From the NCBI GenBank assembly GCA_036155355.1, contig JAYZVT010000244.1, positions 1-29,004 on the forward strand: a DNA stretch of 29,004 nucleotides. Direction: 5' to 3'. Numbering within the stretch: the stretch's first letter is position 1; every line of letters starts with the position of its first letter. The DNA comes from Pseudomonadota bacterium (lineage in GTDB: Bacteria > Pseudomonadota > Alphaproteobacteria > Rhizobiales > Methyloligellaceae). Below are positions 9,178-28,249 of this stretch, in pieces. Both the position numbers and the translations under genes were made by a program. Under the pieces are notes generated by a model, which worked only from the letters and a program-made list of their open reading frames with translations, was not told where the DNA came from and searched no databases.

Positions 9178-9216
9178 GCCCTCCCCACGGCTGCTCCCGT
9201 CCCCGGACTGGTCCCG

Positions 9217-10324: not shown

Positions 10325-10343
10325 GGAGCGCCGCCGTTGTGCC

Positions 10344-11555
10344 TCAGCGCCTGGCCCTGCGCATCGAACCGGCACGCGAGGCGCGCGTGCGCGCCGCGAC
10401 ACGGCTGGCGTCCGGATACATCGTCACCATGGGCTCGTCGGTCAGGATGGCCTCGATATGCTCGCCGAAACCGTTGAAGCGGTTGGCGAACACGCGTCCG
10501 TAGGCGCCGATCTGGTGAATCTCGATGTAGTCACCCTCGCGCACGCAGTCCGGCAGCATGAAAGGGCCAGGCATGGTGTCCATGGCGTCGCAGGTGGGCC
10601 CGTAGAGACCGAAGGGCGCGAGCGGTCCCACCCCGCCCGGCTCCGCACGTACCAGCCGCGCCGGGAATGTGAATCCGGAAACGGCCGCGTCGAACAGTGT
10701 GCCGAAGGCGCCATCGTTGATGTAGAGATAGTTGCCGCGGCGGGAGTCCACGCGCACCAGCACGGACTCTGCCTCCGCGACGAGAGCTCGGCCCGGCTCG
10801 CACATGAGCTGGCAACGGTCGCCGACCGTCAGCTTGTCGCGCTGGGCGGCGATCTCGGACATGAAGGCAGAGAGCTGCGGCGGCTCGGAGCTGACATAGC
10901 GGCTGGGAAATCCGCCACCCACGTCGATGACATCGACGATGACGCCGGCCTTGCGGATCAGCTCGTCGGTCTGCATCAGCGCGGTGGCGTAGCTTTCCGG
11001 CTTCACCGACTGGGAACCGACATGGAAGGTGATGCCGAGCGTCTGAGCGGCACGGCGGGCGCGCACCAGCAGCGCCGGGGCATCTGCCTCGGCGACGCCA
11101 AACTTGCCCTCCAGTGGGATGAGGCTGTGCTTGTTGGAGCAGGCCAGGCGCACATACAGCGCCAAATCGGGGGCGTTGCCCGTCACCTGCAGGATCTTGT
11201 CCAGCTCATCCTGGCTGTCGAGGGAGAAATGGCGGATGCCCAGATTGAAATAGGCGCGCCGGATGGTCTCGCGCGACTTGATCGGATTCATGAAATAGAG
11301 CGTGGCGCCGGGGACGGCGGCCATGCGCTCGGCTTCGGCGAGCGAAGCGACGTCGAAATGGCGGATGCCTTCCTCGACCAGCGCACCGGTCAGGACGGCC
11401 GAGTCATTCGCCTTGACAGCGTAGGCAACGATGCCGGGAAAACGGTCGAGGAACCAGCGGGCCGCGCGTCTGGCGGCGTGGGGTCGCATACACAGGACGG
11501 GACGTTCGGGACGGCGGACGCGGATCAGGTCGGCAGCAGACTCGAATGTCTCCAT
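10344..11555 (-). CDS. Fold-type III PLP decarboxylase, ornithine/lysine decarboxylase-like
   Basis: YAVKAND (PLP Lys), FDVAS, GKFG, FHVGSQ, DVGGGFP, CEPGR, YGPTCD. Start ATG 11555 with GGAGG upstream. Confidence 0.9.
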   Translation of the reverse strand: METFESAADLIRVRRPERPVLCMRPHAARRAARWFLDRFPGIVAYAVKANDSAVLTGALVEEGIRHFDVASLAEAERMAAVPGATLYFMNPIKSRETIRRAYFNLGIRHFSLDSQDELDKILQVTGNAPDLALYVRLACSNKHSLIPLEGKFGVAEADAPALLVRARRAAQTLGITFHVGSQSVKPESYATALMQTDELIRKAGVIVDVIDVGGGFPSRYVSSEPPQLSAFMSEIAAQRDKLTVGDRCQLMCEPGRALVAEAESVLVRVDSRRGNYLYINDGAFGTLFDAAVSGFTFPARLVRAEPGGVGPLAPFGLYGPTCDAMDTMPGPFMLPDCVREGDYIEIHQIGAYGRVFANRFNGFGEHIEAILTDEPMVTMYPDASRVAARTRASRAGSMRRARR

Positions 11556-11717
11556 CTCATGGGACCTCCAAGGCAAAAGGGACCGCTCGATACGGTCAAT
11601 GACCACCTATGTAAAGCGGAATTTTCGCCATGCAAGAAGGAATCATGCCCGGCAGGGTAAAAAGCCCCCGGTTGCTCCCCTGACCCTTGCGCCTATAGTT
11701 GCCCGCGGGAGGTGGCA

Positions 11718-13397: not shown

Positions 13398-13451
13398 GGA
13401 ATTCTTTGGCGTAGCCCTTCGTGGTTGCGCCCGCCATGTGGCAGGTCGGAC

Positions 13452-16319
13452 ATGAAGCCGAAGGTCGAAATTTCCGCGCCGGTCGCCGACGAGATCAAGA
13501 CTTCGACCTGCTACATGTGCGCCTGCCGCTGCGGCATCAAGGTGTATCTGAAGGACGGCCAGGTCCGCTACATCGAAGGCAACCGCGACCATCCGGTGAA
13601 CCGGGGCGTGCTCTGCGGAAAGGGCTCGGCCGGCATTATGCAGCAATATTCCCCGGCGCGGCTGCGGGCGCCGCTGCTGCGCGTGGGCGAGCGGGGCAAG
13701 GGCGAGTTCAAGGAAATCTCCTGGGATGAGGCGCTCGGCCTTGCCACGCAGTGGCTTGGCGACGTGCGCGACTCCGATCCCAAGAAACTCGCCTTCTTCA
13801 CCGGGCGCGACCAGTCGCAGTCGTTGACCGGATGGTGGGCGATCCAGTTCGGGACGCCCAACTACGCCGCGCACGGCGGCTTCTGCTCGGTGAACATGGC
13901 CGCGGCGGGTCTCTACACCTTCGGCGGCTCCTTCTGGGAATTCGGCGAGCCTGACTGGGCGCATACGCGATACTTCATGCTGTTCGGCGTGGCTGAGGAC
14001 CACGCCTCCAATCCGATCAAGATGGGGATCGGCAAGCTCAAGGCTCGTGGCGCCAAGTTTGTTTCGATCAACCCGGTGCGGACAGGATATTCGGCCATTG
14101 CCGACGAATGGGTGGGAATCAAGCCGGGTACCGACGGGCTGTTCGTCGCCTCTCTGATCCGTGAAATGCTGAAAGCAGACAGGGTCGATGCTGAATACCT
14201 AGTGCGCTACACCAACGCGCCCTGGCTGGTGATTGACGACAAGGGCAGCGCCGATCACGGACTGTTCGCGCGCGACAGGAAGGGCAACCCGCTCGCCTTC
14301 GACAAGAAGACCGGGAAACTCACCAACGCCATGCTGCCCGACATCGCGCCGGCGATGATCGGTGACTTCAAGCTGAAGGACGGCCGCAAGGCCGTGCCGG
14401 CATTCCAGCTGCTGGCCAGGCGATTCCTGGACGTCCGTTACGCGCCCGAAAGAGTTGAAAAGGAAACCGGCGTCCCGGCGGACACCATCCGTCGGATCGC
14501 AGCGGAATTGGCCGAGGCGGCATTCGAGCAGGAGGTGGTCCTGGACGTTCCCTGGACCGACTGGGCGGGGCGCAAACATGACAAGATGATCGGCAGGCCG
14601 ATCTCCATGCATGCCATGCGCGGCATCTCGGCTCATTCCAACGGATTCCATACCTGCCGGCTGATCCATGTGTTGCAGATACTGCTTGGCAGCATCGATT
14701 GCCCGGGCGGCTTCCGCTACAAGCCGCCCTATCCCAAGCAGACGCCGCCTTGGCTCAAGCCTTCGGGCAAGCCGCGCGACGTCGCGCCTTCCGAGCCGCT
14801 GGGCGGCCCGCATCTGGGCTTCCCTCTCGGACCGGACGACCTGTTGGTGGACGAGAACGGCACGCCGGGACGCATCGACAAGGCGTTCAGCTGGGATGCG
14901 CCGCTCGCCGCGCACGGGCTGATGCACATGGTCATCACCAACGCCGGCAACCGGGACCCATACCCCATCGACGTGCTGTTCCTCTACATGGCCAACATGA
15001 GCTGGAACTCGACCATGAATGTGCCGGAGGTGCTCGGCCATCTGACGGCGCGGGACGAGAAGACCGGCGACTACAAGATTCCGAAGATCATCTATTCCGA
15101 CGCCTACTATTCCGAGATGGTCGCCTATGCCGACCTGATCCTGCCGGACACCACCTATCTGGAGCGGTGGGACTGCATCTCCCTGCTCGACCGGCCGGTA
15201 TCGGAAGCGGACGGGCCGGCGGACTCGATCCGCCAGCCCGTTATCAAACCCGACCGCGACGTGCGCGCCTTCCAGGAGGTGCTCATCGACCTTGGCGCGC
15301 GGTTGAAGCTGCCGGGATTCGTCACCGACAAGGGCAAGCCGAAATATCCCGGCGGCTATCCCGATTACATCGTCAACCATGAGCGCAAGCCGGGCATCGG
15401 TCCGCTGGCGGGCTGGCGGGGACAGAAGGGCGAAGCCTACGGAGTGGGCGCGCCATATACAAAGCAGCTTCAGCGCTACATTGAAAACGGCTGCTTCCAC
15501 TTCCACAAGCTGAAGCCGTCGATGCACTACTACAAGCACGCCAACCGGGAGTATCTCGACTGGGCACTGCAGATGGGTTATCGCGGCACGGCGACACCGA
15601 TCGTCTTCCAGCTCTACAGCGAGCCGATGCAGCATTTCCACCTGGCCGCCGAAGGACACGGTCCAGTCGTGCCGCCGAAGCATCATCGCCGGCGCATCGC
15701 CACGTTTTTCGATCCCCTTCCCTTCTGGTACGCACCCTTCGAGGGGTCGCTGCTCGACGACGGCGACTACCCCTTCGCCGCCGTAACGCAGCGGCCGATG
15801 GCCATGTATCACTCCTGGGGCTCGCAAAACGCCTGGCTGCGTCAGATCCACGGCGCCAACCGGCTGTATATCAACGCCGCGCGGGCGCGGGAGATGGACA
15901 TCGCCGACGACGACTGGGTGTGGATCATCGGCTACAAGGGCCGCGTGAAGGCGCAGGTGAAACTGCAGGAGGGGGTCAATCCGGACACGGTGTGGACCTG
16001 GAACGCCATCGGCAAGCGCTCCGGTGCATGGTCGCTCGACAAGGATGCGCCGGAGGCGACGCGCGGCTTCCTGCTCAATCACCTGATCTCCGAACTGCTG
16101 CCGGTGCGCCCCGGCGGATACCGCTATTCGAATTCCGACCCGGTGACGGGACAGGCGGCCTGGTACGATCTGCGCGTCCGCATCGAGAAGGCCGAGGCCG
16201 ACCCGGCCCGCACGGAGCCCTTCTACGAACCGATCGATACGCCGTGGAAGCGCGACCTGCCGGACACGTTGCGCTTCGGTGAGCAATTCCGTCGTGACCG
16301 GTGGAGACGCGGCTCATGA
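13452..16319 (+). CDS. soeA: Molybdopterin oxidoreductase catalytic subunit, SoeA-type sulfite dehydrogenase
   Basis: TCYMCACRCG...LCGKG Fe-S motif with no Tat signal; HGGFCSVNMAA; MHAMRGISAHSNGF; YHSWGSQNAWLRQ; followed by DmsB- and DmsC-like genes. Confidence 0.85.
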   Translation: MKPKVEISAPVADEIKTSTCYMCACRCGIKVYLKDGQVRYIEGNRDHPVNRGVLCGKGSAGIMQQYSPARLRAPLLRVGERGKGEFKEISWDEALGLATQWLGDVRDSDPKKLAFFTGRDQSQSLTGWWAIQFGTPNYAAHGGFCSVNMAAAGLYTFGGSFWEFGEPDWAHTRYFMLFGVAEDHASNPIKMGIGKLKARGAKFVSINPVRTGYSAIADEWVGIKPGTDGLFVASLIREMLKADRVDAEYLVRYTNAPWLVIDDKGSADHGLFARDRKGNPLAFDKKTGKLTNAMLPDIAPAMIGDFKLKDGRKAVPAFQLLARRFLDVRYAPERVEKETGVPADTIRRIAAELAEAAFEQEVVLDVPWTDWAGRKHDKMIGRPISMHAMRGISAHSNGFHTCRLIHVLQILLGSIDCPGGFRYKPPYPKQTPPWLKPSGKPRDVAPSEPLGGPHLGFPLGPDDLLVDENGTPGRIDKAFSWDAPLAAHGLMHMVITNAGNRDPYPIDVLFLYMANMSWNSTMNVPEVLGHLTARDEKTGDYKIPKIIYSDAYYSEMVAYADLILPDTTYLERWDCISLLDRPVSEADGPADSIRQPVIKPDRDVRAFQEVLIDLGARLKLPGFVTDKGKPKYPGGYPDYIVNHERKPGIGPLAGWRGQKGEAYGVGAPYTKQLQRYIENGCFHFHKLKPSMHYYKHANREYLDWALQMGYRGTATPIVFQLYSEPMQHFHLAAEGHGPVVPPKHHRRRIATFFDPLPFWYAPFEGSLLDDGDYPFAAVTQRPMAMYHSWGSQNAWLRQIHGANRLYINAARAREMDIADDDWVWIIGYKGRVKAQVKLQEGVNPDTVWTWNAIGKRSGAWSLDKDAPEATRGFLLNHLISELLPVRPGGYRYSNSDPVTGQAAWYDLRVRIEKAEADPARTEPFYEPIDTPWKRDLPDTLRFGEQFRRDRWRRGS

Positions 16320-17065
16320 CCACGCTGCCGCAAACGACGGCGAAGAAGCTCGGTCTGGTTATCGACCTGGATACCTGCGTCGGCTGCCAGGCCTGCGCGA
16401 CAAGCTGCAAGGAGTGGAACACCGGCGGATATTCCGCTCCCCTCACCGACCAGAACCCCTATGGCGCGGATCAGCATGGCGCCTGGCTCAACCGCATTCA
16501 CAGTTTCGAGGCCGGCGAAGGCGATGCCAGCCGCACTGTGCATTTCCCGCGCTCCTGCCTGCATTGCGAGGAGCCCGACTGCGTGACCGTCTGCCCCACA
16601 GGAGCCTCCTACAAGCGCGAGGAGGACGGTATCGTCCTCGTCAACCCGGACACCTGCATCGGCTGCAAGCTGTGTTCATGGGCCTGCCCCTATGGTGCGC
16701 GCGAATATGACTACGGTCACGGCGTGATGAAGAAATGCACGCTCTGCGTCGATCGCATCTACAACGACAACCTGCTGCCCGAGGACCGCGTTCCCGCCTG
16801 CGTGCGCGCCTGTCCGACGGGCGCGCGGCATTTCGGCGACCTTGGCGATCCGTCGAGCGAGGTTTCCCAGCTGGTGCGCCGGCGCGGCGGCTTCGACCTG
16901 CTGCCGGAGATGGGATACAAGCCGGTCAACAAGTACCTGCCGCCACGCGAGCGGCGCGATGGGCGCGCCGCGAATGCTGCATCCACTGCATTGCCGGAGT
17001 CGGGCGGCGGCGCCTCCAGGCTCGACAAGCTGTTCGGCTGGGCCGACCGGCTGCTGTCGCGCTGA
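16316..17065 (+). CDS. soeB: 4Fe-4S ferredoxin subunit (SoeB/DmsB-like)
   Basis: ATGA overlap with soeA. CVGCQAC, CLHCEEPDCVTVCP, CIGCKLCSWACP, KCTLC...CVRACP. Confidence 0.87.
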   Translation: MTTLPQTTAKKLGLVIDLDTCVGCQACATSCKEWNTGGYSAPLTDQNPYGADQHGAWLNRIHSFEAGEGDASRTVHFPRSCLHCEEPDCVTVCPTGASYKREEDGIVLVNPDTCIGCKLCSWACPYGAREYDYGHGVMKKCTLCVDRIYNDNLLPEDRVPACVRACPTGARHFGDLGDPSSEVSQLVRRRGGFDLLPEMGYKPVNKYLPPRERRDGRAANAASTALPESGGGASRLDKLFGWADRLLSR

Positions 17066-17076
17066 AGGGGGCGGCG

Positions 17077-18018
17077 ATGCATCCCGCCTATTCGGTCATC
17101 TTCTTCACCACCGCGTCCGGCGCGGGCTACGGACTGCTGTCGCTGCTCCTCCTGTTTGCGCTGCTTGGGCTGGTCTCGCCGGACGTCTGGCTCGGGCTGA
17201 CCGGGTTCGGCCTCGCCTTTGTGCTGATCGTGGCGGGGCTGCTGTCCTCGACCGCACATCTGGGACGCCCCGAGCGGGCGTGGCGGGCCTTCTCGCAGTG
17301 GCGCAGCTCGTGGCTGTCGCGCGAGGGCGTGATGGCGGTTCTGACTTTCGCACCCGCCGGCATCGCCGCACTTGGCTGGGTCCTGCTTGGAGAGGTTTCG
17401 GGCGCATTGGCCTGGGCGGGCTGGGCGGCGATCCTGTGCGCGGGCATGACCGTCTATTGCACGGGCATGATCTATGCGTCGCTCAAGACGATCCGCCAGT
17501 GGCACCATCCCCTCGTCGCACTCAACTATGTGGTGCTGGCGCTGGCGACAGGTGCAGTACTTTTAGACACATTGCTGACTATGACCGGCCAGCCGTCGAG
17601 ACAAGCGACGTGGACCGCTGTTGCGGCACTTGCCATCGCGCTCGCGCTCAAACTCGCCTACTGGGCCAGCATCGACAGCGCCAACAAGAGCTACACCGTC
17701 GGACGCGCCACGGGCCTCGGGCGCTTCGGCAAGGTGCAGCCGCTTGACCCGCCGCATACGGAACCCAACTTCGTCATGCGGGAGATGGGCTACCGTGTCG
17801 GCCGCAAGCACGCGGCAAGGCTGCGTCTGATCGCGGCCCTGCTGGGATTTATTCTGCCCGCCGTGCTACTCGCGATCGCGGAGCAGGCGGGCGGCGCGCC
17901 ATGGCTCAACTCAATCGCAGTGGCGTCGGCCGCCGCGGGCGTAGTCGTGGAGCGCTGGCTGTTCTTTGCGGAAGCGGAACATGTGGTGATGCTCTATTAC
18001 GGCGCGGGAGCCGCCTGA
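17077..18018 (+). CDS. soeC: Membrane anchor subunit (SoeC/DmsC-like)
   Basis: MHPAYSVIFFTTASGAGYG, HLGRPERAWRAFSQWRSSWLSREG, ERWLFFAEAEHVV; multiple hydrophobic segments. Confidence 0.87.
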   Translation: MHPAYSVIFFTTASGAGYGLLSLLLLFALLGLVSPDVWLGLTGFGLAFVLIVAGLLSSTAHLGRPERAWRAFSQWRSSWLSREGVMAVLTFAPAGIAALGWVLLGEVSGALAWAGWAAILCAGMTVYCTGMIYASLKTIRQWHHPLVALNYVVLALATGAVLLDTLLTMTGQPSRQATWTAVAALAIALALKLAYWASIDSANKSYTVGRATGLGRFGKVQPLDPPHTEPNFVMREMGYRVGRKHAARLRLIAALLGFILPAVLLAIAEQAGGAPWLNSIAVASAAAGVVVERWLFFAEAEHVVMLYYGAGAA

Positions 18019-18030: not shown

Positions 18031-19929
18031 TCAGTTGCCCTGCGCCTGCTTGCGGCTGAGCTGCGGATTGCCGCCATTCTGCGTCACCGGCTGCTGCAAC
18101 AGCCCGAAGGACTTGCGCGCGGCAAGTCGCACCATATGCGCCGTGTAGGCATAGAGCTCTACCGCATCGACGGCGTTGTCGGCGTTGCCGATCGGGGCCA
18201 GGTCGGCGCGGCCGGCAAGGCCCTCAATGAGGTAGCGGGTGAACAGGCCGATACCGTATCGCGGGTCGTCGATCGTGCGCTGATCGCCCGACGCGGCGGC
18301 CATAACGGTCAGGCCCGGCGAAGGACTGCGCGGAAGTACTGATGTCCGCATCGCGGGAAGATTGGGCGGATAGACGATATCGCTGATGTCGCGCCCGAAC
18401 TCGGCCTCAAGCAGGACGAGCGAAGACTTCATACCGAGCGCGGCGACGCGGTCATAAAGCGTGGACAGGGGATAGCCGGTCTGCGCCGCCCGATGGGGAA
18501 GCGTGTCCACTGGCAGGAGAAAACGCTCCGACTGGTCCGGCAGGGTCGCGCCGTGACCGGCGAAATAGATGAACAGTCTCTCCGCGCCACGCCGCTTCAA
18601 CGCGGCGGCCAGCTCACCAGCACCGCCATCGCCAAACACTCGCCTGAAATCGTCGAGCGAAGCGTCCCGCAGATCGATGACGTTCTCGGCCTTTATTCCC
18701 AGATGCTCGGTGAGCAGTGCGTAAAAGGCGCCCGCATTGTTGTGTGCGCTGCCGTTGACCTCGATGCCGCCGCGATAGGACTTGTTGCCTATAACGACTG
18801 CGAAGTCCTTTTCGTGCCCCAGTCCATTGGAGAAGGGCCGGTAGAGTTCCCGCACCCGGGTGAAGGCAGCGCGACCGGCGGCGCCTGGCTGCGACCACCG
18901 CGGCAGCTGGGTGGGCGGACGCGAGCACAAGGACACGTTGGTCTCGCGTTCAATGAGCAAAATGTCGTCGAGGGGAAGATGCGAGTTTATCTGCAGGCAG
19001 GACTTGCACCACTCGACGACGCGATTGGCTTCATATGAAGCGATCTCCTTCGGCCCCAGCTCACGCGGCACCGGCAGGCAGTTGTCATGGCAGGCCTTGA
19101 GTTGCGGGCGCGCCCCATAGGCGCCGGTGACCAATTCCATGAGGTCGGGCGGCAAGCACTGCGCTTCGGCGGCGGCAAACAGGCGGGGCTGGGCCGGGGT
19201 CGAACCCTCGCCAGTCACAGGATCAGCCGGGCGGGCGGAGGCGACGTAGGTACCCAGCTCCCGCTGGGTCTCCGGGCAGAGATCGAAGAGACGCAGCTGT
19301 GTCTTCAGCTCGAGCGCGCCCTTGGTCGAAGCGGCCACATTGTAGTCCTTCTTGAAAAACCAGAAGGCGGTCCAGAAGGCCGATGTCGGGGTCGCGGCCG
19401 GCTCTCCCTTGAGATAGCCGGCCTCGATCATGCAGCGCTGGATCAGCGCCATGTCGGAGGTCAGCAGCGGCTCTTCGCCGGGCTTGCGGTCTATTCCGGC
19501 GTGCAACTGGGGATGGATGCACTGATCGCCCTGGGGTACATGCCCGGCCCGGCAGACGCACTTCTGCTCGGCCGGCGACCAGCGCTTGGTCTCGTCGCAG
19601 GCTTGCGCCAACTGCACGCACTTGTCATCGACAAGACCGTGGCCCTCGGCCACGCAGATGCACTTCTTCAATCCGTGCGAGTAGACCATCGGCGCCTCGC
19701 AAAGAGGCTGGGGCGCCGGCGCGGCGACCGGGGGACGCCTGAAGCGTCTGACCTGCGGCTCGGGCTGCTGATAGGGACTGAAGAAAGGCGAATAGTAATA
19801 TTGCTGCGCCAGTTGCAGGCGCTGCGGCGAGAACCGTGGTTCAGCTTTGGCGGGCAAGGCCGCAAGTGTCAGTTGGGCAGCGAGGACGGCTACAAACCCA
19901 CAAAGTGCGGACCTCATTCCCACACGCAT
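18031..19929 (-). CDS. Exported protein: Cys-rich repeats + peptidoglycan-binding-like segment + caspase-like (C14) domain lacking the catalytic Cys
   Basis: Signal peptide; two C-x12-C-x-C-x10/11-C units; LIQRCMIEAGYL...FWTAFWFFKKDY resembles PG_binding_1; FAVVIGNKSY...IYFAGHG (His kept) ...VLLEAEF (Glu where D-[AS]-C has Cys). Confidence 0.75.
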   Translation of the reverse strand: MRVGMRSALCGFVAVLAAQLTLAALPAKAEPRFSPQRLQLAQQYYYSPFFSPYQQPEPQVRRFRRPPVAAPAPQPLCEAPMVYSHGLKKCICVAEGHGLVDDKCVQLAQACDETKRWSPAEQKCVCRAGHVPQGDQCIHPQLHAGIDRKPGEEPLLTSDMALIQRCMIEAGYLKGEPAATPTSAFWTAFWFFKKDYNVAASTKGALELKTQLRLFDLCPETQRELGTYVASARPADPVTGEGSTPAQPRLFAAAEAQCLPPDLMELVTGAYGARPQLKACHDNCLPVPRELGPKEIASYEANRVVEWCKSCLQINSHLPLDDILLIERETNVSLCSRPPTQLPRWSQPGAAGRAAFTRVRELYRPFSNGLGHEKDFAVVIGNKSYRGGIEVNGSAHNNAGAFYALLTEHLGIKAENVIDLRDASLDDFRRVFGDGGAGELAAALKRRGAERLFIYFAGHGATLPDQSERFLLPVDTLPHRAAQTGYPLSTLYDRVAALGMKSSLVLLEAEFGRDISDIVYPPNLPAMRTSVLPRSPSPGLTVMAAASGDQRTIDDPRYGIGLFTRYLIEGLAGRADLAPIGNADNAVDAVELYAYTAHMVRLAARKSFGLLQQPVTQNGGNPQLSRKQAQGN

Positions 19930-20084
19930 CTTTCACTCCCCGACGCAACTTTCGGGCCTTCCTGCTGGACCCGTTACCAACTGCTGGACCGGACGCTAGC
20001 CTCCGGAGTCCGCAATCCTACCCGTCATGCAGCGCGAGAGGAACCGTTCGTTCTCAAACGCCGTTAATTTCACCACGCTGTCTG

Positions 20085-21020
20085 TCATTTCACCAACTGG
20101 TACTCGACGCGCCGGTCGAAGGCGTAGCGCTCTTCCTCGGAATATTTCGCCGGATCATCGGGCACGAAGGGCGCACGTTCGCCCAGGCCGACGACCTCGA
20201 TGTTGCCCTTGTACCCGTTGGCAAGCAGATAGCCCTTCACCGCTTCCGCGCGCGCCAGGGACAGGCCGAGATTATAGCCGTCGTTCCCGCGCGGGTCGGT
20301 ATGACCGATCAGCTTCACATGTGCGACTGAGTGATCGCCCAGATAGGCGAGGATGTCCGCGACCGCCTTCTCGCCATCGGGAGTCAGTACGGCGGCGTCA
20401 TATTCGAACCGCACAGGGACCGGCACCGACTCGGCGGTGAAATTGCGGAAGTTCGGCGAGCCGGCGCCGCTGACCTTGCCGCGGAATCGGCGGGTAGCGA
20501 CGTAGACCGGGGCCAGCGCGCGGGCCTGGTAGGCGAGCTTGGCCACACGCTCCTCATCCTCCTTCGCCGGCGGCTTGGGGTTGAGCGCCGTATCACGCAT
20601 GTCATCGAGCGCGGATTCGTAGGCCCTGACCGCCTCGCCATACTGCTTGGCCCCATATTGGGCATCGCCCAGCGCAACCATCACCTGCCAGGGTTGGCCG
20701 TAGGACGCCGCCTGTTTCAATTGATCGAGCGCAATCGTACCGCCGCCACCTGCATCGGCCTGCATCTTCTTCAGGCTGGCAAGCGCGAGCACGCGTCCGA
20801 CGCGGGCGCGATACTGTCCGTCGCAGCTGGTATCGGCCAGCATCCGGGAATGCAGATCGGGGAACCGGGCCAAATCGGCGGCGCCTATGGCCTCGCGCAG
20901 GTCCTTGTCCAGGACCGTACAATCGGCAAGAGCCGCCCCTGGAATAAGGACGGCTCCTGCAAGAATGATGGGGAGGGCGCGGAGCGCCCTCCCCTTTGTC
21001 GTTGGCGTCGAGGCACTCAT
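20085..21020 (-). CDS. Exported OmpA-family peptidoglycan-binding protein with N-terminal TPR-like helical domain
   Basis: Signal peptide; ALGDAQYGAKQYGEAVRAYESAL (TPR-like); VRFEYDAAVL...IGHTDPRGNDGYNLGLSLARAEAVK...DRRVE (OmpA C-terminal). Confidence 0.85.
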   Translation of the reverse strand: MSASTPTTKGRALRALPIILAGAVLIPGAALADCTVLDKDLREAIGAADLARFPDLHSRMLADTSCDGQYRARVGRVLALASLKKMQADAGGGGTIALDQLKQAASYGQPWQVMVALGDAQYGAKQYGEAVRAYESALDDMRDTALNPKPPAKEDEERVAKLAYQARALAPVYVATRRFRGKVSGAGSPNFRNFTAESVPVPVRFEYDAAVLTPDGEKAVADILAYLGDHSVAHVKLIGHTDPRGNDGYNLGLSLARAEAVKGYLLANGYKGNIEVVGLGERAPFVPDDPAKYSEEERYAFDRRVEYQLVK

Positions 21021-23539
21021 TTCACCTCGACCGTGATGGCTGTCCGCGACAGGACCGTCGGCTTCGGCGCCGCCTTGCCGTCCTTGATCGCGGCCTTGCC
21101 TTCGGCGACCTTCTCCTTGCCCTCGACCACGATCTGACGGGTGAGGAACTCGCGATACTGGCCGACGTCAGTGAAAGCGCGGGTCTTGAAGTCGTGCTTG
21201 ATGCCGTCAACGAGCTTGCTGTCGGCATTGCACACGGCGATCACCGTCTCCTTGCCCTTGTCCTTCAGGCGCAGCTGGAAGGGTGCCTTGGCACCTGGCA
21301 ACTTCACCTCCTTGCCAGCAGCGATGAGATTGTCCTGCTGGAACTTGTTGGGGAAGATGACGGTGCCGACGCCCTTGCCATCAACGTTGATGAGCGTCAG
21401 GTTGCAGTTCTCCTTCGACGTAATGCTGAGCTGGAGCAGTTCCCCGACGTCGTACACGGACTTGTCGGAGAGCAGAGCCAGGTCGAACTCGGCCTGCTTG
21501 CCCTTGGGCTTGTCGTCGCCCACCTTGGCCACGTCAGCCTTCGCGGCATCGCCGCCGGTGTCCACGCGAAGGTCGTCAGAGACCTTCTCGATGACCTCGG
21601 CGAAGCGCGCCTCGAACTGCTCGCGCGGCAGCACACCCTGCTCGAGACGACGCTTGGTCCGGAAGGACTCGCCGCCATCGGCCGCGAGACCCTCGGCAAG
21701 CTGCTCGCTGGAGATGCCGTACTCGGCCGCCGCAACGCGCAGGTCAAGCGCCTTCTCATACTGCTTGGAGAGGAAGTTGATGCTCTCCACGCCCGACTGC
21801 TGGGAGTCGAGGTCCGGATCGAGACCAGCACGCAGCATGGCCGTGCGGAAGCGGTTGTAGTCGTCGTCGAGGAGCTTGTTCATCTCCGCGACTTCGGGAT
21901 ACAGCGCCTTCACCTTTTCACGGGTGTCGCGATCGAAGGTACGGTCCGTAAACACATGCTTGCGGATTTCGTCCGTCGCACGCCGGATGCCCTGGTTGTG
22001 GCAGCCGAAGCAGGAGATGCCGTTGGTGACGGCACGGTCGAGCTGACTGTCATCGAGGACGATCTCGGTCGGACCCTTCTCCAGGCGCTTGCCGTCAGCG
22101 GTGTTCAGGTAATAGCCCTGGAAACCGTTAGGCAGGCTGAAAATGGTCTCGCCACCGTCTTCCTTGAAGGCGTTCGGGCCCTTGGGACCGAGCGGGCGCA
22201 CGAACAGGCTCTGCTCGGGCCTGTCACCCTTGAAGTCGTAGGAGGTCCAGAAATAGCCGGTGTTGATCGAGTGACGCTCGATCAGACGGTTATGCTTGGA
22301 CACGCCCGACTTCTGGAAGCCCGCACGGGCGGCGCGGAACTTCTCGATGTTCTCGGTCACGTCGACGCCAAAGTCCTTCTGAAGCTGCTGGAAGTTGTCC
22401 GGGAGCTTCAGGAGATCGTAATAGAGCGGCGGCCGCGACGCGGTGAAGGCAAACCAGTCGCCACGGATCCAGGATATGGGCGTGTCGGTGATCTGCTTGA
22501 CCGTGTCATAGGTCGTCGTATCGGGACGGTTGGCATAGGGGTAGGACTTGATGATCGTGTCCCAGTCCTTGGCCTCCCACTTCAGGTCGTCCAGATTGAA
22601 GGCAATGATGGTATTGTCCTTGTCGATCGTCCGCATCTTTAGGACGTCCGACTGGCGGCTGAGACTGTTCAGCAGCTTCACCACGCCCTGACGCAGACGC
22701 ACCAGGTTCTCCTCCTTCTCGCAAACGTTGTAGAAGTGAGAGAGCGTGATGTAGCGCATGCCCTTGCGGCGATGGTCTTGTTGGGCATTCAGGTCGGCCG
22801 CGATCGACTCGACGATGTCGGCGCTGGCGATCGGCTTGCGGTCGCACTTGGGCGGCGCAAGCGAAACGATCCAGTCCGAAATGGCCTTAACCTCTTCGAC
22901 CGTCGGCTCATCTCCGCCGGAGAATTCCTGGCGGACGTCATACGGCATGGTGCCGTCGAGCAATGTCTTGAAGAGGCGCGAGCCCTCCGGCAACCCCGCG
23001 ACCACGAGGTTCGCATCCTTGGCGACCTCGTCGAGTTGCAGGACGTTGCCGAAATTCTTGGCCGGCTTTTCGCGCTCGAGACGGCCGATCTGATGGCAGC
23101 GGGCGCAATGCTTGTCGAGCGCCTTGAATGCCTTCAGTGCGACCGGATCCGTGGGCTCCGCGATGGCCGCGGCCTGAACGGGCGCGGGAGCTGGAGCGGG
23201 AGCCGGTGCCGGTTCAGGCGCCTGGGCCTGGACAGGCTCAGGGGCCGGCGCGGGAGCCGGTGCCTGGACCTGTGCTGGCGCTGGCTCTGGAGCGGGCGCC
23301 TGCACCTGGGCCGGAGCAGGCTCGGGAGCCTGCGCCTGTGCGGGCGCAGCTTCGGCCGGCTTGGCCTCCTCGGGCTTTGCTCCCGCTTCGGGAGCCGTGC
23401 CCTGGACCGTCTGGATGGCTTCCGCCGCCCTGTCGGCCGGTTGTTTGCCTTCGGCGGCATATGCGCCGATAACGCCCACGACGCCTGCGACGGCGAGGGC
23501 GAGTACGGATATCGATGTCAGTCCTATGCGCGATCTCAT
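21017..23539 (-). CDS. Large exported c-type cytochrome: Pro/Ala linker, planctomycete-type cytochrome c domain, unknown central domain with second CxxCH, C-terminal DUF4384-like domain
   Basis: GGAGG RBS; signal/anchor peptide; CARCH (23093-23107) followed by G.PEGSRL...GTMP...EVKAISDWI; CFGCH (21998-22012); DKSVYDVGELLQLSITSKENCNLTLINVDGKGVGTVIFPN. Confidence 0.75.
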   Translation of the reverse strand: MRSRIGLTSISVLALAVAGVVGVIGAYAAEGKQPADRAAEAIQTVQGTAPEAGAKPEEAKPAEAAPAQAQAPEPAPAQVQAPAPEPAPAQVQAPAPAPAPEPVQAQAPEPAPAPAPAPAPVQAAAIAEPTDPVALKAFKALDKHCARCHQIGRLEREKPAKNFGNVLQLDEVAKDANLVVAGLPEGSRLFKTLLDGTMPYDVRQEFSGGDEPTVEEVKAISDWIVSLAPPKCDRKPIASADIVESIAADLNAQQDHRRKGMRYITLSHFYNVCEKEENLVRLRQGVVKLLNSLSRQSDVLKMRTIDKDNTIIAFNLDDLKWEAKDWDTIIKSYPYANRPDTTTYDTVKQITDTPISWIRGDWFAFTASRPPLYYDLLKLPDNFQQLQKDFGVDVTENIEKFRAARAGFQKSGVSKHNRLIERHSINTGYFWTSYDFKGDRPEQSLFVRPLGPKGPNAFKEDGGETIFSLPNGFQGYYLNTADGKRLEKGPTEIVLDDSQLDRAVTNGISCFGCHNQGIRRATDEIRKHVFTDRTFDRDTREKVKALYPEVAEMNKLLDDDYNRFRTAMLRAGLDPDLDSQQSGVESINFLSKQYEKALDLRVAAAEYGISSEQLAEGLAADGGESFRTKRRLEQGVLPREQFEARFAEVIEKVSDDLRVDTGGDAAKADVAKVGDDKPKGKQAEFDLALLSDKSVYDVGELLQLSITSKENCNLTLINVDGKGVGTVIFPNKFQQDNLIAAGKEVKLPGAKAPFQLRLKDKGKETVIAVCNADSKLVDGIKHDFKTRAFTDVGQYREFLTRQIVVEGKEKVAEGKAAIKDGKAAPKPTVLSRTAITVEVK
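23174..23359 (-). repeat. Intragenic low-complexity (A)PEPAPAQVQAP-type repeat encoding a Pro/Ala/Gln linker
   Basis: Translation PAEAAPAQAQAPEPAPAQVQAPAPEPAPAQVQAPAPAPAPEPVQAQAPEPAPAPAPAPAPVQ. Confidence 0.85.
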
Positions 23540-23683
23540 TTTAACCTCCGCTGGCGTGGAGTTGGCGTTCTCGCACAGCCCTAGTGCCCGCCGGCTGAAT
23601 GGCGCATGAACGGCCCTGCTCCGCTCACGTTCATCTTGTTCCGGTCCGGTGTCTGGAAATGGCAGGCTCCTCAGATAATCCCG

Positions 23684-25204
23684 CTATTTAACGATTTCAT
23701 AGCGCAGTGTCGCAACCGACCAACTGGCGAATTCCGTGTTCTTGGCGGCATCATTGGCATGCAATGGTGTCCCGAGCGCGGCGGCCAGCTTGGGCAGAAA
23801 CGATTCGACCGCTTCCTGGCGGGGTATTACCTCGATGGAGCGCGTCTTCACTTCCTTGCCGAAGTCCACCTGGTCGCGAGTGACGATGGCGACGATATAG
23901 CCCGAACTGGGGGCCGTGGCGTTGAACTTGAGGCCATAATAGTCGTCCGGCACCGATAATGGCGAGCCGGCGAGCAGACGGCCGGTATTCGCGGTCTCGT
24001 ATTTACGCGAGAACTGGTTGGGGTAGAGCTGGACGAGCTTTCCGTCGTCGGACAGGTCGAGCAGGATCAGATAACCCTCATGCGGGCTTGTCACCCGGAA
24101 GCGGATATCTCGCGTGCCGACATGCACCGGTGACGGAGGGTGAAGTTCGACAACTACGCCATGCACATTGCCCTTGGCGAGGAAGTCTGTCACCTGTCCG
24201 ATATCAAGCTTCGCCGGCGGCGCATCCGGCGCGATGGCGGCCTTCTCCTTGCCAAGAGCAGACGCCGCATGTGCGCCGGCAGGGTCCAGCTTCGGCGTCA
24301 AACCCATCTCGCAGCGGTCCGCATGGGACCTGCAATATGCGGCGGAGCCGGTGCTGACGTAGCTCAGAAGCTCGGCATTGGAGATGACGCCATTGCCGTT
24401 CTTGTCGGCTTTGGCCTCGCCGAGGGCTTCGACATAGAGTTTGGTGAAGACGCCATGAGCCTTGCCACCCGCGGCATCCACAAGCGCAACCTGGCTGCCG
24501 GCGACAGCCGACCATACCGACAGGCTGCCGCTGGCCAGAGTCGTCTCGACGAAACCGCCCTCTTCCGCCTTCTGGGCCGCGGCGGCAGCCTCGACCACGA
24601 TTGAACGCGTCGCGGTAGCTATCTGCGGCGTGCGCGCGGCGACGACGATCTTGCCGCCGGACTTGGCATCGCGCGTGACCGCGCCTGAATGTCCTGAATC
24701 TATTACGACAGTGACGTTGCGACCCTCGAGCACTTTGAGTGCCTCGGAGAACTCGTCATCACTCAGCAGGCCGGAAATCTCCGGCTTCGGCCCCGAGCCT
24801 TCCACCTTTGAATCGAACAAGGCCAACGCCTCGTCGAGGCCGTCGGTCTCGTCGCCATTGGTATCCTTCTGGAAGTAACCCATGCCCGCATAATAGAAGT
24901 AGGCACGCTCGCCGGGCTTGGTTCCCTTGCCAAGCCAGTCCGCTACGTTGGCCAGCACTGCCGCCTTGGTCGCCTCGGCGTCCTTCAGCACCTTTATGTC
25001 ACCGGCGGCAAAGCCGAGTTTGGACGTGAGCAACGCCTTGATCGCCTCGACGTCGTTGATTGCCGAAGGCATTTCTAGGCGCAGCTTCTCGTCGGCGTAT
25101 GCATCCACGCCAACAAGCAGCGCCCTGTCGGCGGCGGCGCATGCGGCTGGAGAGGCGAGATGAATGGCGAGACCTGCGACGGGTATGAGGGCGAGCAGGC
25201 GCAT
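23684..25204 (-). CDS. Exported caspase-family (C14) pseudo-protease + DUF4384-like domain
   Basis: Signal peptide; RALLVGVDAY...NDVEAIKALL...ATKAAV; FYYAGMG and VIDSGHSG where AGHG and DSCHSG are expected; C-terminal FRVTSPHEGYLILLDLSDDGKLVQLYPN. Confidence 0.82.
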   Translation of the reverse strand: MRLLALIPVAGLAIHLASPAACAAADRALLVGVDAYADEKLRLEMPSAINDVEAIKALLTSKLGFAAGDIKVLKDAEATKAAVLANVADWLGKGTKPGERAYFYYAGMGYFQKDTNGDETDGLDEALALFDSKVEGSGPKPEISGLLSDDEFSEALKVLEGRNVTVVIDSGHSGAVTRDAKSGGKIVVAARTPQIATATRSIVVEAAAAAQKAEEGGFVETTLASGSLSVWSAVAGSQVALVDAAGGKAHGVFTKLYVEALGEAKADKNGNGVISNAELLSYVSTGSAAYCRSHADRCEMGLTPKLDPAGAHAASALGKEKAAIAPDAPPAKLDIGQVTDFLAKGNVHGVVVELHPPSPVHVGTRDIRFRVTSPHEGYLILLDLSDDGKLVQLYPNQFSRKYETANTGRLLAGSPLSVPDDYYGLKFNATAPSSGYIVAIVTRDQVDFGKEVKTRSIEVIPRQEAVESFLPKLAAALGTPLHANDAAKNTEFASWSVATLRYEIVK

Positions 25205-25205
25205 G

Positions 25206-26789
25206 TCAGCCTCCCGACCCGGTATAGATGTCGAGCACGCCCACCTGCACGTCTCCCGACGCGAGTACGGCTTCGAGCACCGTGCGCAGCGGTCCCGTGT
25301 CCTTTGCCGTCTTCATGGCGGCAAGCACCGCGTGAAGGTCGCTCAGGATGGTCTTGGAAAAGATGGCGACGAGGTGTTCCGCACCATAGGGCGGGTTCGC
25401 GACCTTGAAGCTCTCCACGAAGGCACCGCCGCGCCAGTCTTTCTCCGCCTCACCCTTTCTCTTTGGATCGGGAATGAAGAATTCCACGCGGCCGTCCGGC
25501 GGCATGTTGAACATGGTCAGATGCGGATAGGCCGCACCGGCGATCTTCACATCCACAGTCTCGCCGATGTTGTATCGCTTGTTGCCGCTGGGCAGCGAAA
25601 CGTCCACCGCGTCGGACGCGGCCCTGTGCTTGAGCAGCTTGAGCGCGGCCCACTTGGTGGCCACGGGCACAACATTGCCGGCATTGACGCCGAGCGCCAC
25701 GACGCCGCCCACCTTGTGCTCGATTGTGCCGGATGCCGCATACCAGATGAGATCCGCCTTCGACTTGTCCGCTACCACCTCCACGAAGGGGACATCTCCG
25801 AGCGGTCCGGCGGTGCCGCCGTCGATGGCGATGCGCAGCGGTTCGGAGGTGTTATCGGGCTTTTCCGGCTTTGCGCTGCGGACATTGAACAGTCCGAATG
25901 AGCGCGCGCGTAGTGGCGCGACCTGGGGCGTCTGCTGGCTTTCCACCTGGGCGTGAACGGCCGGCACGACGAAGCCCAGAAGCTCGACCTGCGTCACCAC
26001 GCCATCGCCGTCTCGATCGGCGCGACCCTCGAGCGCGCGCGCCAGCGCCCAGCTCAATGCGCCGCGCTTCTGCCCGTCGATGGTGACTTCGGGCGTGAGC
26101 TGGTCTTCCGACGTGGCGCCGACGAAAGTGATGTTCTGGAAATCGTCTTCCTTCAACTTGCCTGCCTCGGGCGGAGGAAATTTCAGCAGGTCATCAGTTA
26201 TCTCGCCGAATTTGCCGTTGCGGAAGCGAACCGTCTCGGCGCGGGCGCTACGGTTCATGGTGCCGGAATGGCAGGAATCGGCAGCAAAGACGACACGGAC
26301 ATTCTTCTTGTCCGCCTTCTGCAGCCACTCGGCAATTTCATCGTCGATGATACGCTCCCGCGTACCCTTGCCCTGCGTGGCATATCCGGCGAGCAGGAAA
26401 TTCTCGTTCTTCCCATCGGCCTCGTCGTGACGGCCGGGCGGCTCGGGCTCCTGGCTGCCATGACCGGCAAAGCTGAAGAAGATCGTGTCGCCATCCTGCG
26501 CAACACCGAGCAATTCGTGATAAGCGTTCTCGATATTCGCCTTGGTAGCCTCATGATTGAGGAACTTGCGGATCTGGACCGCGCCTGCGGTCTTCAGCGC
26601 TTTGGCAATATCCTCCGCGTCGTGGACTGCTCCCTCCAGGTCGTTGCGTTCGCCGATATAGTCGTCGATGCCGACGACGAGGCCGAAGATAGCGGGTTCG
26701 CGCGCTTGCAGGCTGGTGGGACCTTCAATGCAGAGCAAGGCGGCAGCGAAGGCCGCGAGCCAGGCGCACCCGGTCCTTGTCCTGCTCAT
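25206..26789 (-). CDS. Exported caspase-family (C14; meta/orthocaspase-like) protease with intact dyad + DUF4384-like domain
   Basis: Signal peptide; GLVVGIDDY..LEGAVHDAE; FSFAGHGSQ (His 26460-26462); ADSCHSG (Cys 26271-26273); RGALSWALARALEGRADRDGDG; KRYNIGETV...HLTMFNMPPDGRVEFFIP. Confidence 0.87.
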   Translation of the reverse strand: MSRTRTGCAWLAAFAAALLCIEGPTSLQAREPAIFGLVVGIDDYIGERNDLEGAVHDAEDIAKALKTAGAVQIRKFLNHEATKANIENAYHELLGVAQDGDTIFFSFAGHGSQEPEPPGRHDEADGKNENFLLAGYATQGKGTRERIIDDEIAEWLQKADKKNVRVVFAADSCHSGTMNRSARAETVRFRNGKFGEITDDLLKFPPPEAGKLKEDDFQNITFVGATSEDQLTPEVTIDGQKRGALSWALARALEGRADRDGDGVVTQVELLGFVVPAVHAQVESQQTPQVAPLRARSFGLFNVRSAKPEKPDNTSEPLRIAIDGGTAGPLGDVPFVEVVADKSKADLIWYAASGTIEHKVGGVVALGVNAGNVVPVATKWAALKLLKHRAASDAVDVSLPSGNKRYNIGETVDVKIAGAAYPHLTMFNMPPDGRVEFFIPDPKRKGEAEKDWRGGAFVESFKVANPPYGAEHLVAIFSKTILSDLHAVLAAMKTAKDTGPLRTVLEAVLASGDVQVGVLDIYTGSGG

Positions 26790-27736
26790 TTTCCGGTTTC
26801 CTTGGAAGGGCGGCTGCTGGCGATGGCGGGTATCGACTTGAGATAGGCAGCGATGGCCGCACGATCCTCCGCGGTAAGCTTTGCGGTGTTGGTTTGCACG
26901 GCGGCCATTGGCCCGCCAAAGGCGTCGAATGACGGCGTCAGGCCGCTCTCAAGCGAATAGGCGATCTCGTCCTCGCTCCAGGCGCCAATGCCGGTCTTGT
27001 CGGGCGTGATATTGGGGATGTAGCCAACGCCTTCAGGAGAAGGCCCACCAGACAGCTTCGCGGCAGTGATAATGCCGCCGAAAATATTCCGGGGCGAATG
27101 GCATTCGCCGCAATGGCCGGGACCTTCAACGAGATAGCCGCCGCGATTGATCTTGTCGCTGGCGCTTGCAATCGGCTGATAGGCTTGCCCATCGAGGAAC
27201 AACAACTTCCACAGGCCGAGTCCGCGCCGCAGGCGGAACGGTAGCGCGAGGTCATGTGCCGGAGCCTCAACGTCCGAGGCCGGCAGAGTGTCCAAGAATG
27301 CCTTGAGGTCCAGCAGGTCCGTCGGCTTCATGCGCTGATAGGACGTGTAGGGAAACGCGGGGTAGTAGTGACTGCCATCCGGCGAGACACCGCGCGCCAT
27401 GGCGTTGACAAATTCCAGCGGCGTCCAGCCGCCGATGCCATGCGTCCTGTCGGACGAGATATTGGGTGCGTAGAAAGTGCCGAACGGCGTTTTCAGGCAG
27501 CGGCCACCGGCAAGCAGCTTCGGATCGCCATATTTCGGATCATCACACTTGGACGAGGCCGGAGCGGCATGGCACGAGGCGCAACCGCCCGCATAGAACA
27601 TGTATTCGCCGTTCTTGACGTCAGGCGTGTGACTGGGAAGCGCCGTCGCGGCAATGGTCCTGGGCGCCGTCAGGACATAGAAGACGACTGCGCCCAGGAT
27701 TCCGAGGATGACGACCGCCCACACAAGGCGTCGCAT
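26786..27736 (-). CDS. Membrane-anchored diheme cytochrome c
   Basis: GGAGGG RBS; N-terminal hydrophobic helix; GGCASCH and GHCGECH; TPFGTFYAPNISSD; HYYPAFPYTSY; PNITPD. Confidence 0.9.
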   Translation of the reverse strand: MRRLVWAVVILGILGAVVFYVLTAPRTIAATALPSHTPDVKNGEYMFYAGGCASCHAAPASSKCDDPKYGDPKLLAGGRCLKTPFGTFYAPNISSDRTHGIGGWTPLEFVNAMARGVSPDGSHYYPAFPYTSYQRMKPTDLLDLKAFLDTLPASDVEAPAHDLALPFRLRRGLGLWKLLFLDGQAYQPIASASDKINRGGYLVEGPGHCGECHSPRNIFGGIITAAKLSGGPSPEGVGYIPNITPDKTGIGAWSEDEIAYSLESGLTPSFDAFGGPMAAVQTNTAKLTAEDRAAIAAYLKSIPAIASSRPSKETGK

Positions 27737-27802
27737 GCTGCCCTCCATAAACAAATCTCGTGCCGCGCGACCCCGGATCGCGCGGACGCAACATGCTTGC
27801 GA

Positions 27803-28249
27803 CTACTTCTTCACGCGATAGGCTTCGTGGCAGCTCTTGCAGTTCTTCACAAGCTCGCCGAACGCAGCCTTGTAGGCGCCAATACCCTGCTTTGCCGCTT
27901 CTTCGCCCTGGGCCGCGGCAACCTTCAACTTCTCAGCCGCAGCCACGAAGCCCGCCATGTCTTCCCAGATCTTGGGCGATGCTTCGGTTTCGCCACCGGT
28001 CTTGGACGTGTCGGGGAACAGCTTGACATACTGGTCGGGAACCGCAGCGATGGTCTTCATCGCCTCCGCCGCCTTGGCCTGGTCGAAATCGACCTTACCC
28101 GAAACCATTTCGGAAGCGGCCTTGGTCGATGCACCAACCTGCTTCATCAACTCCTTGCGCGCCTTGATCGGATCGTCGGCCGCGACTGCCGCCAAAGCGC
28201 CGAAAGCCACCGCTCCCACCAGAATGGCGGACCGTACCAGAATATTCAT
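27803..28249 (-). CDS. Cytochrome c'/c556 (class II four-helix-bundle cytochrome)
   Basis: Start ATG 28249 with GGGAG RBS; signal peptide; DPIKARKELM; SPKIWEDMAGF; C-terminal CKSCHEAYR. Confidence 0.9.
   Translation of the reverse strand: MNILVRSAILVGAVAFGALAAVAADDPIKARKELMKQVGASTKAASEMVSGKVDFDQAKAAEAMKTIAAVPDQYVKLFPDTSKTGGETEASPKIWEDMAGFVAAAEKLKVAAAQGEEAAKQGIGAYKAAFGELVKNCKSCHEAYRVKK

Follow-up and report, generated by a model that had tools for sequence, protein, structure and literature searches.

Seven consecutive minus-strand open reading frames (ORFs), G1-G7, occupy positions 18031-28249 of the stretch analysed here, a 29,004-nucleotide contig (JAYZVT010000244.1, assembly GCA_036155355.1; below, the window) from a metagenome-assembled genome (MAG) of the alphaproteobacterial family Methyloligellaceae. 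They encode two cytochromes c (G1, G2), three caspase-family proteins (G3, G4, G7), an OmpA-like protein (G6) and a two-haem protein, G5 (Table 1). The conserved unit is G5 with a protease and a peptidoglycan binder, not the seven genes. The reading that we favour, with slightly less than even confidence, is of a wall-anchored periplasmic protease module organised around G5, which would act as a haem-sensing hub that gates proteolysis. A role as an extracytoplasmic sensing or scaffolding hub controlling proteolysis is argued for by the constant triad of G5, protease and wall binder, by the sigma/anti-sigma context of one group of relatives (type B, below), and by receptor-kinase fusions of the module formed by the G5-type cytochrome domain and core.

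Gene neighbourhoods of G5

Eighty-three loci (L numbers) were fetched around G5 homologues, and their neighbours were assigned by tblastn, clustering of all ORFs and Pfam searches of representatives. Counts out of 55 refer to the loci with at least 5 kb on either side of G5. A same-strand caspase or S8 subtilase lies within 7 kb of G5 in 50/55 loci, and a peptidoglycan-binding partner (OmpA-like, PG_binding_1 or G7-type) is present in 48/55, a recurrence that favours the cell-wall tether proposed in an earlier, sequence-only reading of the window. That reading had also treated the seven genes as one unit. Co-conservation is indeed found in several Hyphomicrobiales families, but the unit is smaller than proposed and the class of its protease is interchangeable.

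Three types of arrangement were found. The type A order is [G1]-G2-[G3]-[G4]-G5-[G6]-[G7], and G1, G3, G4, G6 and G7 are each absent from some relatives. A Methyloligellaceae MAG (L019) has all seven genes in this order, and shorter runs are found elsewhere: G1-G6 in three Labrys loci, G2-G6 in a Hyphomicrobiaceae MAG (L003) and in Bauldia (L057), and G3-G6 in a Parvibaculaceae MAG. Many Methyloceanibacter-type genomes carry G1-G2-(G3)-G5-G7, without G4 and G6. In L004, at 79% identity (tblastn) the nearest relative encountered, the genes are G1-G2-G3-G5 and G4 is absent. Order and strand are retained at 47-65% G5 identity (tblastn) in Labrys, Bauldia, Hyphomicrobiaceae, Methyloligellaceae and Parvibaculaceae, and gene overlaps are conserved in relatives (G2/G3 by 4 nt in L001, G5/OmpA in L003).

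Type B, with 17 loci (11 of them full-flank, i.e. 11/55) in Bradyrhizobium, Afipia, Pseudorhodoplanes and others, consists of an extracytoplasmic function (ECF) sigma factor, a single-pass anti-sigma-like protein, a secreted S8 subtilase, often an OmpA-like protein, and G5. In 37/55 loci G2 precedes G5 on the same strand, and in no locus (0/55) does it accompany the ECF/S8 set. In type C, other proteases come after G5 and OmpA. Bradyrhizobium sp. LjRoot220 (L075:12210-17743) has G5-OmpA and then a caspase with DUF4384, a trypsin with DUF4384 and a full-length serpin, the last of which suggests built-in protease inhibition. L071 has a caspase with PG_binding_1 plus a CHAT/TPR protein, and L074 and L080 have two or three caspases bearing TPR, PAN or SH3 domains. 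A remote, 39%-identical G5 relative (L085:1-16430) is accompanied by OmpA and a 1272-residue Trypsin_2/beta-propeller protein.

In the G5 tree, the window groups with L004 and L019 inside a Methyloceanibacter-type clade. Several partner switches are needed to explain the tree; L075, for instance, branches from inside the ECF/S8 clade. One contig labelled as a Sediminibacterium ginsengisoli MAG (Bacteroidota, L064) has a G5 homologue and ECF/anti-sigma/S8 neighbours that fall tightly inside the Afipia clade; this probably reflects mis-binning of an alphaproteobacterial contig, not transfer.

The genes could be adjacent through shared ancestry only, with G1-G2 an ordinary respiratory pair and the caspases mere paralogues, as might be thought from the abundance of caspase domains in the MAG (at least 15 matches in 2.47 Mb, about one per 165 kb), the many loci from closely related Methyloceanibacter genomes, and the lack of G1 in about half of the loci. 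However, at that density a caspase gene would be expected by chance in a 14-kb neighbourhood in fewer than 10% of loci, and 41/55 are observed. The retention of order and strand across the taxa listed above, the 4-nt G2/G3 and G5/G6 overlaps and the repeated recruitment of non-orthologous proteases beside G5 also speak against such loose association, which is already disfavoured and which we regard as highly improbable.

The distribution of the G5 family is patchy. Within the order it is found in 23/195 high-quality genomes and 14/106 genera, and among the other genomes of Methyloligellaceae in 3/5, all from one genus. This would suit a role in defence or conflict, in which G5 would sense a phage or competitor cue and unleash the protease, as envelope immunity or abortive infection. 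The swapped effector proteases, the maintained pseudo-enzymes and the serpin, tachylectin, PAN, TPR and CHAT partners are in line with this, as are the position of the L085 relative, which has a type I-E CRISPR-Cas operon on one side and an integrase on the other, and the G5-core fold of atlas clusters with mostly viral labels (see below). However, a search of the seven proteins against PADLOC-DB 2.0 found only a generic caspase match (G3, G4) and a weak ZorB/MotB match to the OmpA domain, with none for G1, G2, G5 and G7; since the matches are generic, the cluster is not filed under a known defence system. The usual partners of defence systems, such as an NTPase or a nuclease, are missing from it, and its neighbours in the window and in Methyloceanibacter-type genomes are housekeeping genes in conserved synteny (GST, ornithine decarboxylase, glutamine synthetase). 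The integrase of the window is 14 kb away, beyond unrelated genes, and the island context comes from one locus. Thus, the possible defence role raised in the sequence-only reading finds little support, and we consider it improbable.

The G5 protein and its cytochrome partners

G5 consists of a signal or anchor segment, a Pro/Ala-rich disordered linker of ~90 residues (to ~122), a cytochrome c domain, a core, a DUF4384 domain (residues 695-770, a beta-sandwich; Pfam 5.2e-17) and a long helix. The cytochrome domain is of PSCyt1-like class I type, with CARCH at 145-149 and an invariant Met198-Pro199 (His/Met-type), and G5 scores below the threshold of the PSCyt1 Pfam model (PF07635). The core, of ~430 residues and mixed alpha/beta structure, holds the second haem motif (CFGCH, 510-514). 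The AlphaFold2 (AF2) model has a predicted local distance difference test score (pLDDT) of 78.7 and a predicted template modelling score (pTM) of 0.79. Across 53 G5 homologues, C145, C148, H149, M198, C510, C513 and H514 are invariant, and the core is rich in invariant polar residues (Arg, His, Glu, Asp, Asn), for instance in an S-x-V-S-x-x-N-R-L-I-E-R-H block.

The core has no Pfam model and no family in PHROGs, and sequence and profile searches of the PDB returned nothing for it. With Foldseek, the core of the AF2 model had no match in the PDB or BFVD, and the DUF4384 beta-sandwich alone gave weak, generic matches to Ig-like and macroglobulin domains. The family itself is large: 603 word-indexed homologues are labelled only as 'DUF4384 domain-containing' or 'hypothetical', and an exhaustive search with residues 125-670 returned 3795 representative clusters (50% identity), 1540 of them at E <1e-30. 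PF07635 is found in 33/39 remote homologues of the module, and the fusion partners of remote members include FGE-sulfatase, Ser/Thr kinase, WD40, TPR and TPM domains. In four receptor Ser/Thr kinases the PSCyt1+core module starts directly after a single transmembrane (TM) helix (Pkinase-TM-module-FGE-sulfatase), and is therefore the ectodomain of the kinase.

In a structure atlas, residues 125-670 group with PSCyt1 proteins of 590-740 amino acids from Planctomycetota and Myxococcota (feature score 0.96-0.97; query-normalised TM-score 0.73-0.83), and stand-alone and virus-labelled forms of the core are also seen. These Planctomycete-type PSCyt1 proteins, themselves uncharacterised, have the cytochrome domain and core in common with G5; relative to them, the G5 family adds DUF4384 and a fixed protease/OmpA neighbourhood. 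Two ESM Atlas clusters of hypothetical proteins (444 and 348 amino acids), mostly labelled Uroviricota, have the G5-core fold (TM-score 0.78-0.82 on their side), and no viral relative of the core was confirmed by PHROGs or BFVD. Of named candidates for core relatives outside the PSCyt1, DUF4384 and cytochrome families, the Aq_1262 lipoproteins scored best and were rejected, as their score of 0.77 is within the noise range.

G1 is a class II four-helix cytochrome with a C-terminal CxxCH, assigned from its sequence to the cytochrome c'/c-556 family. It covers the whole PF01322 profile (Cytochrom_C_2, 1.1e-30), and in the PDB it is closest to Rhodopseudomonas palustris cytochrome c' (1a7v, 1.4e-22), with a further match to cytochrome c-556 (1s05, 5.2e-09). 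The position of the distal Leu of the R. palustris protein is occupied by Met. G1 may be a gas sensor of the c' type, with a five-coordinate high-spin haem that binds NO or CO, or a low-spin c-556, two types that are not separable by sequence. G1 is facultative, being present in 26/55 loci.

G2 has a Pfam Cytochrom_C domain. It is homologous to the trihaem cytochrome subunits of membrane-bound dehydrogenases (for fructose, alcohol, aldehyde and glucose) over the first two of their haem domains (E 2.5e-49 to 1.8e-35); in the best of these matches, 7w2j_C (2.5e-49), G2 residues 36-314 align with residues 30-299 of the 486 in the chain. Unlike those subunits, G2 lacks a third haem domain, having two CxxCH only, and carries an N-terminal anchor, with a hydrophobic segment at residues 5-23 that appears to be uncleaved. 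The catalytic partner of the trihaem subunits is not found in the cluster; G2 instead adjoins G1 and G3, and the same is true of 37 related loci. The G2 start codon is uncertain (TTG at 27754, or an in-frame ATG at 27748 or 27736). G2 and G5 are each single-copy in the MAG.

With cytochromes as neighbours, G5 could be the catalytic subunit of a periplasmic haem enzyme that receives electrons from G2 and G1, with the caspases maturing, tethering or turning over the enzyme or its substrate. The logic would be that of dihaem peroxidases and MauG, in which an electron-transfer haem feeds a reactive haem. The five haems could form a chain from G2, a relative of quinone-linked dehydrogenase subunits, through the soluble class II cytochrome and the His/Met-type domain of G5 to the buried core haem, and in loci without G3 (L020-L030, L065) G2 lies directly ahead of G5. 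However, G5 is unlike CCP/MauG and any solved enzyme: the CCP/MauG model PF03150 matches 3/53 members of the family (best E 0.036), and no match to a solved CCP/MauG structure was found. The ECF/S8 and OmpA-only arrangements have the module without cytochrome neighbours, the near-constant partner of G5 is a protease rather than a cytochrome, and the ectodomain of a receptor kinase is a context typical of sensing. A redox enzyme is the main rival to a haem-sensing hub, though on the unlikely side.

Caspase-family proteins, wall binders and cluster layout

All three caspase-family proteins score above the cut-off of Peptidase_C14 (PF00656): G3 at 9.7e-17 (61.9 bits against a cut-off of 21.4), G4 at 2.8e-11 and G7 at 9.5e-06. 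G3 also matches metacaspase-1 in the PDB (4f6o, 1.8e-12), and its dyad is intact (His110 in AGHG, Cys173 in DSCHSG), as it is in 28/28 orthologues covering both sites. G3 is thus the sole protease of the cluster predicted to be catalytically competent. G4, a paralogue of G3 (30% identity, E 5e-18), shares its architecture and has lost the dyad at both positions (Met108 in AGMG, Gly171 in DSGHSG); in its lineage Cys is found in 0/9 members and His in 2/9. G7 retains His459 and has Glu510 at the Cys position (LEAEFG), with the catalytic Cys in 0/24 and His in 17/24 members of its lineage, which also shows other, invariant Cys positions. Alignment thus characterises G4 and G7 as old, maintained pseudo-caspase lineages, not decayed genes. 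One intact and two degenerate caspase-like domains had been noted from the sequence of the window, and Pfam and the dyad alignment agree.

DUF4384-like tails had been noted on three proteins. Those of G4 (PF14326, 3.1e-09) and G5 are recognised by Pfam; that of G3 is below the Pfam threshold (E 0.031) and is matched only by hhalign against the G5 DUF4384 profile (probability 84%, E 8e-6). EF-hand-like DxDGDG/DxNGNG loops follow the caspase domains of G3 (~257-270) and G4 (265-284, with a weak EF-hand_1 match, E 0.00097), and the loop is degenerate in G7. Judging from these motifs, a Ca2+ site bearing on activation may be present.

Two peptidoglycan-binding-type modules had also been proposed. 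That of G6 stands, with an OmpA domain well above its cut-off (PF00691, 4.2e-14, 53.1 bits against 27.2) and a retained peptidoglycan-contact motif TDxxG...LSxxRA, read as TDPRG...LSLARA; a two-residue Asp/Arg rule for this contact is given in the portion available of PMC6572160. NCBIfam matches of G6 to Pal/YiaD/PA1041-type models are all under their cut-offs, and its N-terminal domain of ~170 residues has a weak TPR signal. An OmpA-like gene adjoins G5 in 19/55 loci and also in the remote relative L085. The second, putative module, in G7 (~157-201), has no Pfam match and has moderate hhalign support (67%, E 5e-5, to the Pfam-verified PG_binding_1 family). AF2 models it with confidence as a helical unit, and its matches at low root-mean-square deviation (1.3-2.3 A) are the peptidoglycan-binding domains of phiKZ gp144, SleB and SltB2/3, at E >1. 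It lies between a Cys-rich beta-hairpin region (~75-145) and more conserved Cys pairs, which are followed by the caspase domain. G7 is present in 21/55 loci.

Clan CD peptidases include transpeptidases, and G3 might covalently join G5, or some different protein, to peptidoglycan or the OmpA-like protein, in the manner of PorU or GPI transamidase, with DUF4384 as the recognition tag. The occurrence of DUF4384 as a C-terminal domain common to three proteins and the near-constant presence of wall-binding partners would fit such sorting. However, DUF4384 sits on proteases too, and the protease is replaceable by S8 subtilases or trypsins, neither of which is to our knowledge a sorting transpeptidase. 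A C-terminal cleavage motif was not seen, though no search was aimed at one. We therefore think sorting very unlikely indeed, and retain gated proteolysis as the preferred reading.

The layout given in the sequence-only reading holds on direct inspection. ORF coordinates agree with its seven minus-strand frames, and an export or anchor signal at each N-terminus is in keeping with the hydrophobic segment predicted for all seven proteins from hydrophobicity and sequence reading. The three junctions are exact: the stop of G2 and the start of G3 share an ATGA at 26786-26789, those of G5 and G6 share another at 21017-21020, and G3 and G4 are separated by 1 nt at 25205 (TGA-c-ATG). The five CxxCH motifs over three proteins are CKSCH in G1, CASCH and CGECH in G2, and the CARCH and CFGCH of G5. 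Ccm-type attachment of c-type haem takes place in the periplasm, and the five sites therefore place these proteins there. Good ribosome-binding sites are found at G1 (GGGAGA ahead of the ATG at 28249), G5 and G7. G6 and G7 lie 155 nt apart. G4 and G5 are separated by a 144-nt gap that is non-coding in the window; at this place a 63-residue ORF is called between the pseudo-caspase gene and G5 in Labrys portucalensis (L002:9799-9990).

Table 1. Genes of the cluster, with positions in the window.
Gene	Position	Strand	Product
G1	27803-28249	-	exported class II cytochrome c (predicted), 148 aa
G2	26786-27754	-	dihaem cytochrome c with predicted N-terminal membrane anchor, 322 aa
G3	25206-26789	-	exported orthocaspase (predicted), 527 aa, intact dyad, DUF4384-like tail
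G4	23684-25204	-	exported pseudo-orthocaspase (predicted), 506 aa, C-terminal DUF4384
G5	21017-23539	-	two-haem protein, putative hub, 840 aa, DUF4384 tail
G6	20085-21020	-	exported OmpA-like peptidoglycan-binding protein (predicted), 311 aa
G7	18031-19929	-	exported pseudo-orthocaspase (predicted), 632 aa

Elsewhere in the window, a DmsABC-type molybdopterin oxidoreductase set (catalytic subunit, 4Fe-4S subunit, DmsC anchor) is encoded at 13425-18018 (+), convergent with G7. A functional link to the cluster was considered and rejected: the adjacency is found again in L003 only (DmsA 71% identical) and in 0 of the other 82 loci, and is therefore treated as local synteny. A tyrosine integrase gene at 3122-4426 (-; Phage_integrase + Arm-DNA-bind_3), 14 kb from the cluster, adjoins the part of the window lowest in GC (1-3000, 0.52-0.57 against ~0.63 elsewhere), and this region may be the edge of an integrated element. 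A transglutaminase-like gene is found at 5948-7210. Three long overlapping plus-strand ORFs without a Pfam match (7708-11660) are faced by equally long minus-strand ORFs (7756-11606), and it is probably the minus strand that carries the genuine genes.

Proposed mechanism and relation to described systems

Beyond domain content and co-conservation, we infer the following steps for the favoured haem-sensing hub. G6 and G7 would tether the assembly to the cell wall, and the DUF4384 domains common to G3, G4 and G5 would recruit G3 and G4 to G5. The membrane-anchored dihaem G2 and the soluble G1 would link the haems of G5 to the respiratory chain or quinone pool, so that the redox or ligand state of the core haem would report an envelope or respiratory condition. 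This state, together with the pseudo-caspases, would switch G3 on or off, and G3 would then cut periplasmic or envelope targets, after Arg or Lys if it is like characterised orthocaspases. In the ECF/S8-type relatives, the corresponding end point would be an anti-sigma factor that is cleaved, with a response in transcription.

Several points weigh against this reading. The pairing of G3 and G4 with G5 through DUF4384 is a guess from shared domains, and the invariant polar residues of the G5 core are as compatible with an enzyme as with a sensor. Since the ECF/S8 and OmpA-only arrangements lack both G1 and G2, coupling to redox state by way of G2 cannot apply generally. Promoter and terminator scans of the cluster gave counts at the level of shuffled sequence, and thus only the gene overlaps argue for co-transcription; a search of sequencing runs found the stretch only in the source seawater DNA metagenome and in no RNA run. 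As the loci are phylogenetically clustered, with many from Methyloceanibacter, the counts overstate their independence. Unlike the loci, the repeated recruitment of non-orthologous proteases beside G5 is phylogenetically independent.

More tentatively still, G5 may represent a new envelope signalling module, a two-haem sensor without a solved structural relative, fixed to the wall through an OmpA- or PG_binding-type partner, that would control an interchangeable secreted protease (caspase, subtilase, trypsin or CHAT), with outputs ranging from activation of an ECF sigma factor to direct envelope proteolysis. Receptor Ser/Thr kinases of Planctomycetota and Myxococcota would employ the same sensor as their ectodomain.

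Among the closest described proteins are the orthocaspases and pseudo-orthocaspases of Rhizobiales (Klemencic et al. 2019, PMC6426788). G3 is likewise a p20-type C14 protein with a His-Cys dyad, and G4 and G7 are dyad-substituted pseudo-variants; according to that survey, 96% of alphaproteobacterial pseudo-orthocaspases fall in Rhizobiales, and DUF4384 tails are found on orthocaspases and pseudo-orthocaspases as well as on kinases. In the portion of it that was available the proteins are treated individually, with a link to photosynthesis proposed, and no operon is mentioned that contains cytochromes, an OmpA-like protein or a member of the G5 family. The carriers in the present analysis (the seawater MAG, Methyloceanibacter, Labrys and Bauldia) are not known to be phototrophs.

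Type B relatives have the gene content expected of a periplasmic site-1 cleavage cascade, as in regulated proteolysis of ECF anti-sigma factors; no description of an ECF group with this partner set was found in the literature searched. The cluster of the window differs from such systems in lacking a sigma/anti-sigma pair, in place of which it has cytochromes, and in having a caspase as its protease. Its flanks are not sigma-like either, being the DmsABC-type set and a truncated ORF that reads by eye as a D-2-hydroxyacid dehydrogenase. In the type III-E 'Craspase' (Cas7-11, Csx29, Csx30, Csx31, RpoE), a caspase-like protease cuts a partner of which a fragment controls an ECF-type sigma factor, and according to the Craspase paper some Csx30 C-terminal domains are DUF4384, a domain often fused to proteases. 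However, Craspase is cytoplasmic and RNA-guided, without haem, OmpA or export signals, and nothing CRISPR-related is found in the window. The likeness is one of analogy in logic plus one shared domain, not of membership.

The sequence-only reading knew of no described system of this make-up, and none was found here for the cluster or the G5 neighbourhoods in the literature searched, which was mostly without subscription journals, so that an earlier description is possible. The component families are known (orthocaspase, pseudo-orthocaspase, class I and II cytochromes c, OmpA). What appears to be new is the assembly, with a structurally unmatched haem core as its putative hub and interchangeable proteases and wall anchors, which is a variant of no system that we can name.

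Caspase homologues are very numerous in alphaproteobacteria, but activators, partners or substrates are known for hardly any of them. The cluster links one caspase predicted to be active and two predicted to be inactive with a definite, conserved set of partners, comprising two cytochromes, a further haem protein and a wall anchor. Since natural variants swap the protease class or the output (ECF sigma), the question is tractable in cultivable carriers, among them Labrys, Methyloceanibacter superfactus and Bradyrhizobium. If G5 does represent a new envelope signalling module, this would be the first bacterial caspase, with two pseudo-caspases, under respiratory or redox control in the periplasm. 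DUF4384 is proposed to be a protease-associated adaptor domain, and the hub reading would offer a first working hypothesis both for this domain and for the very large, uncharacterised PSCyt1+core family.

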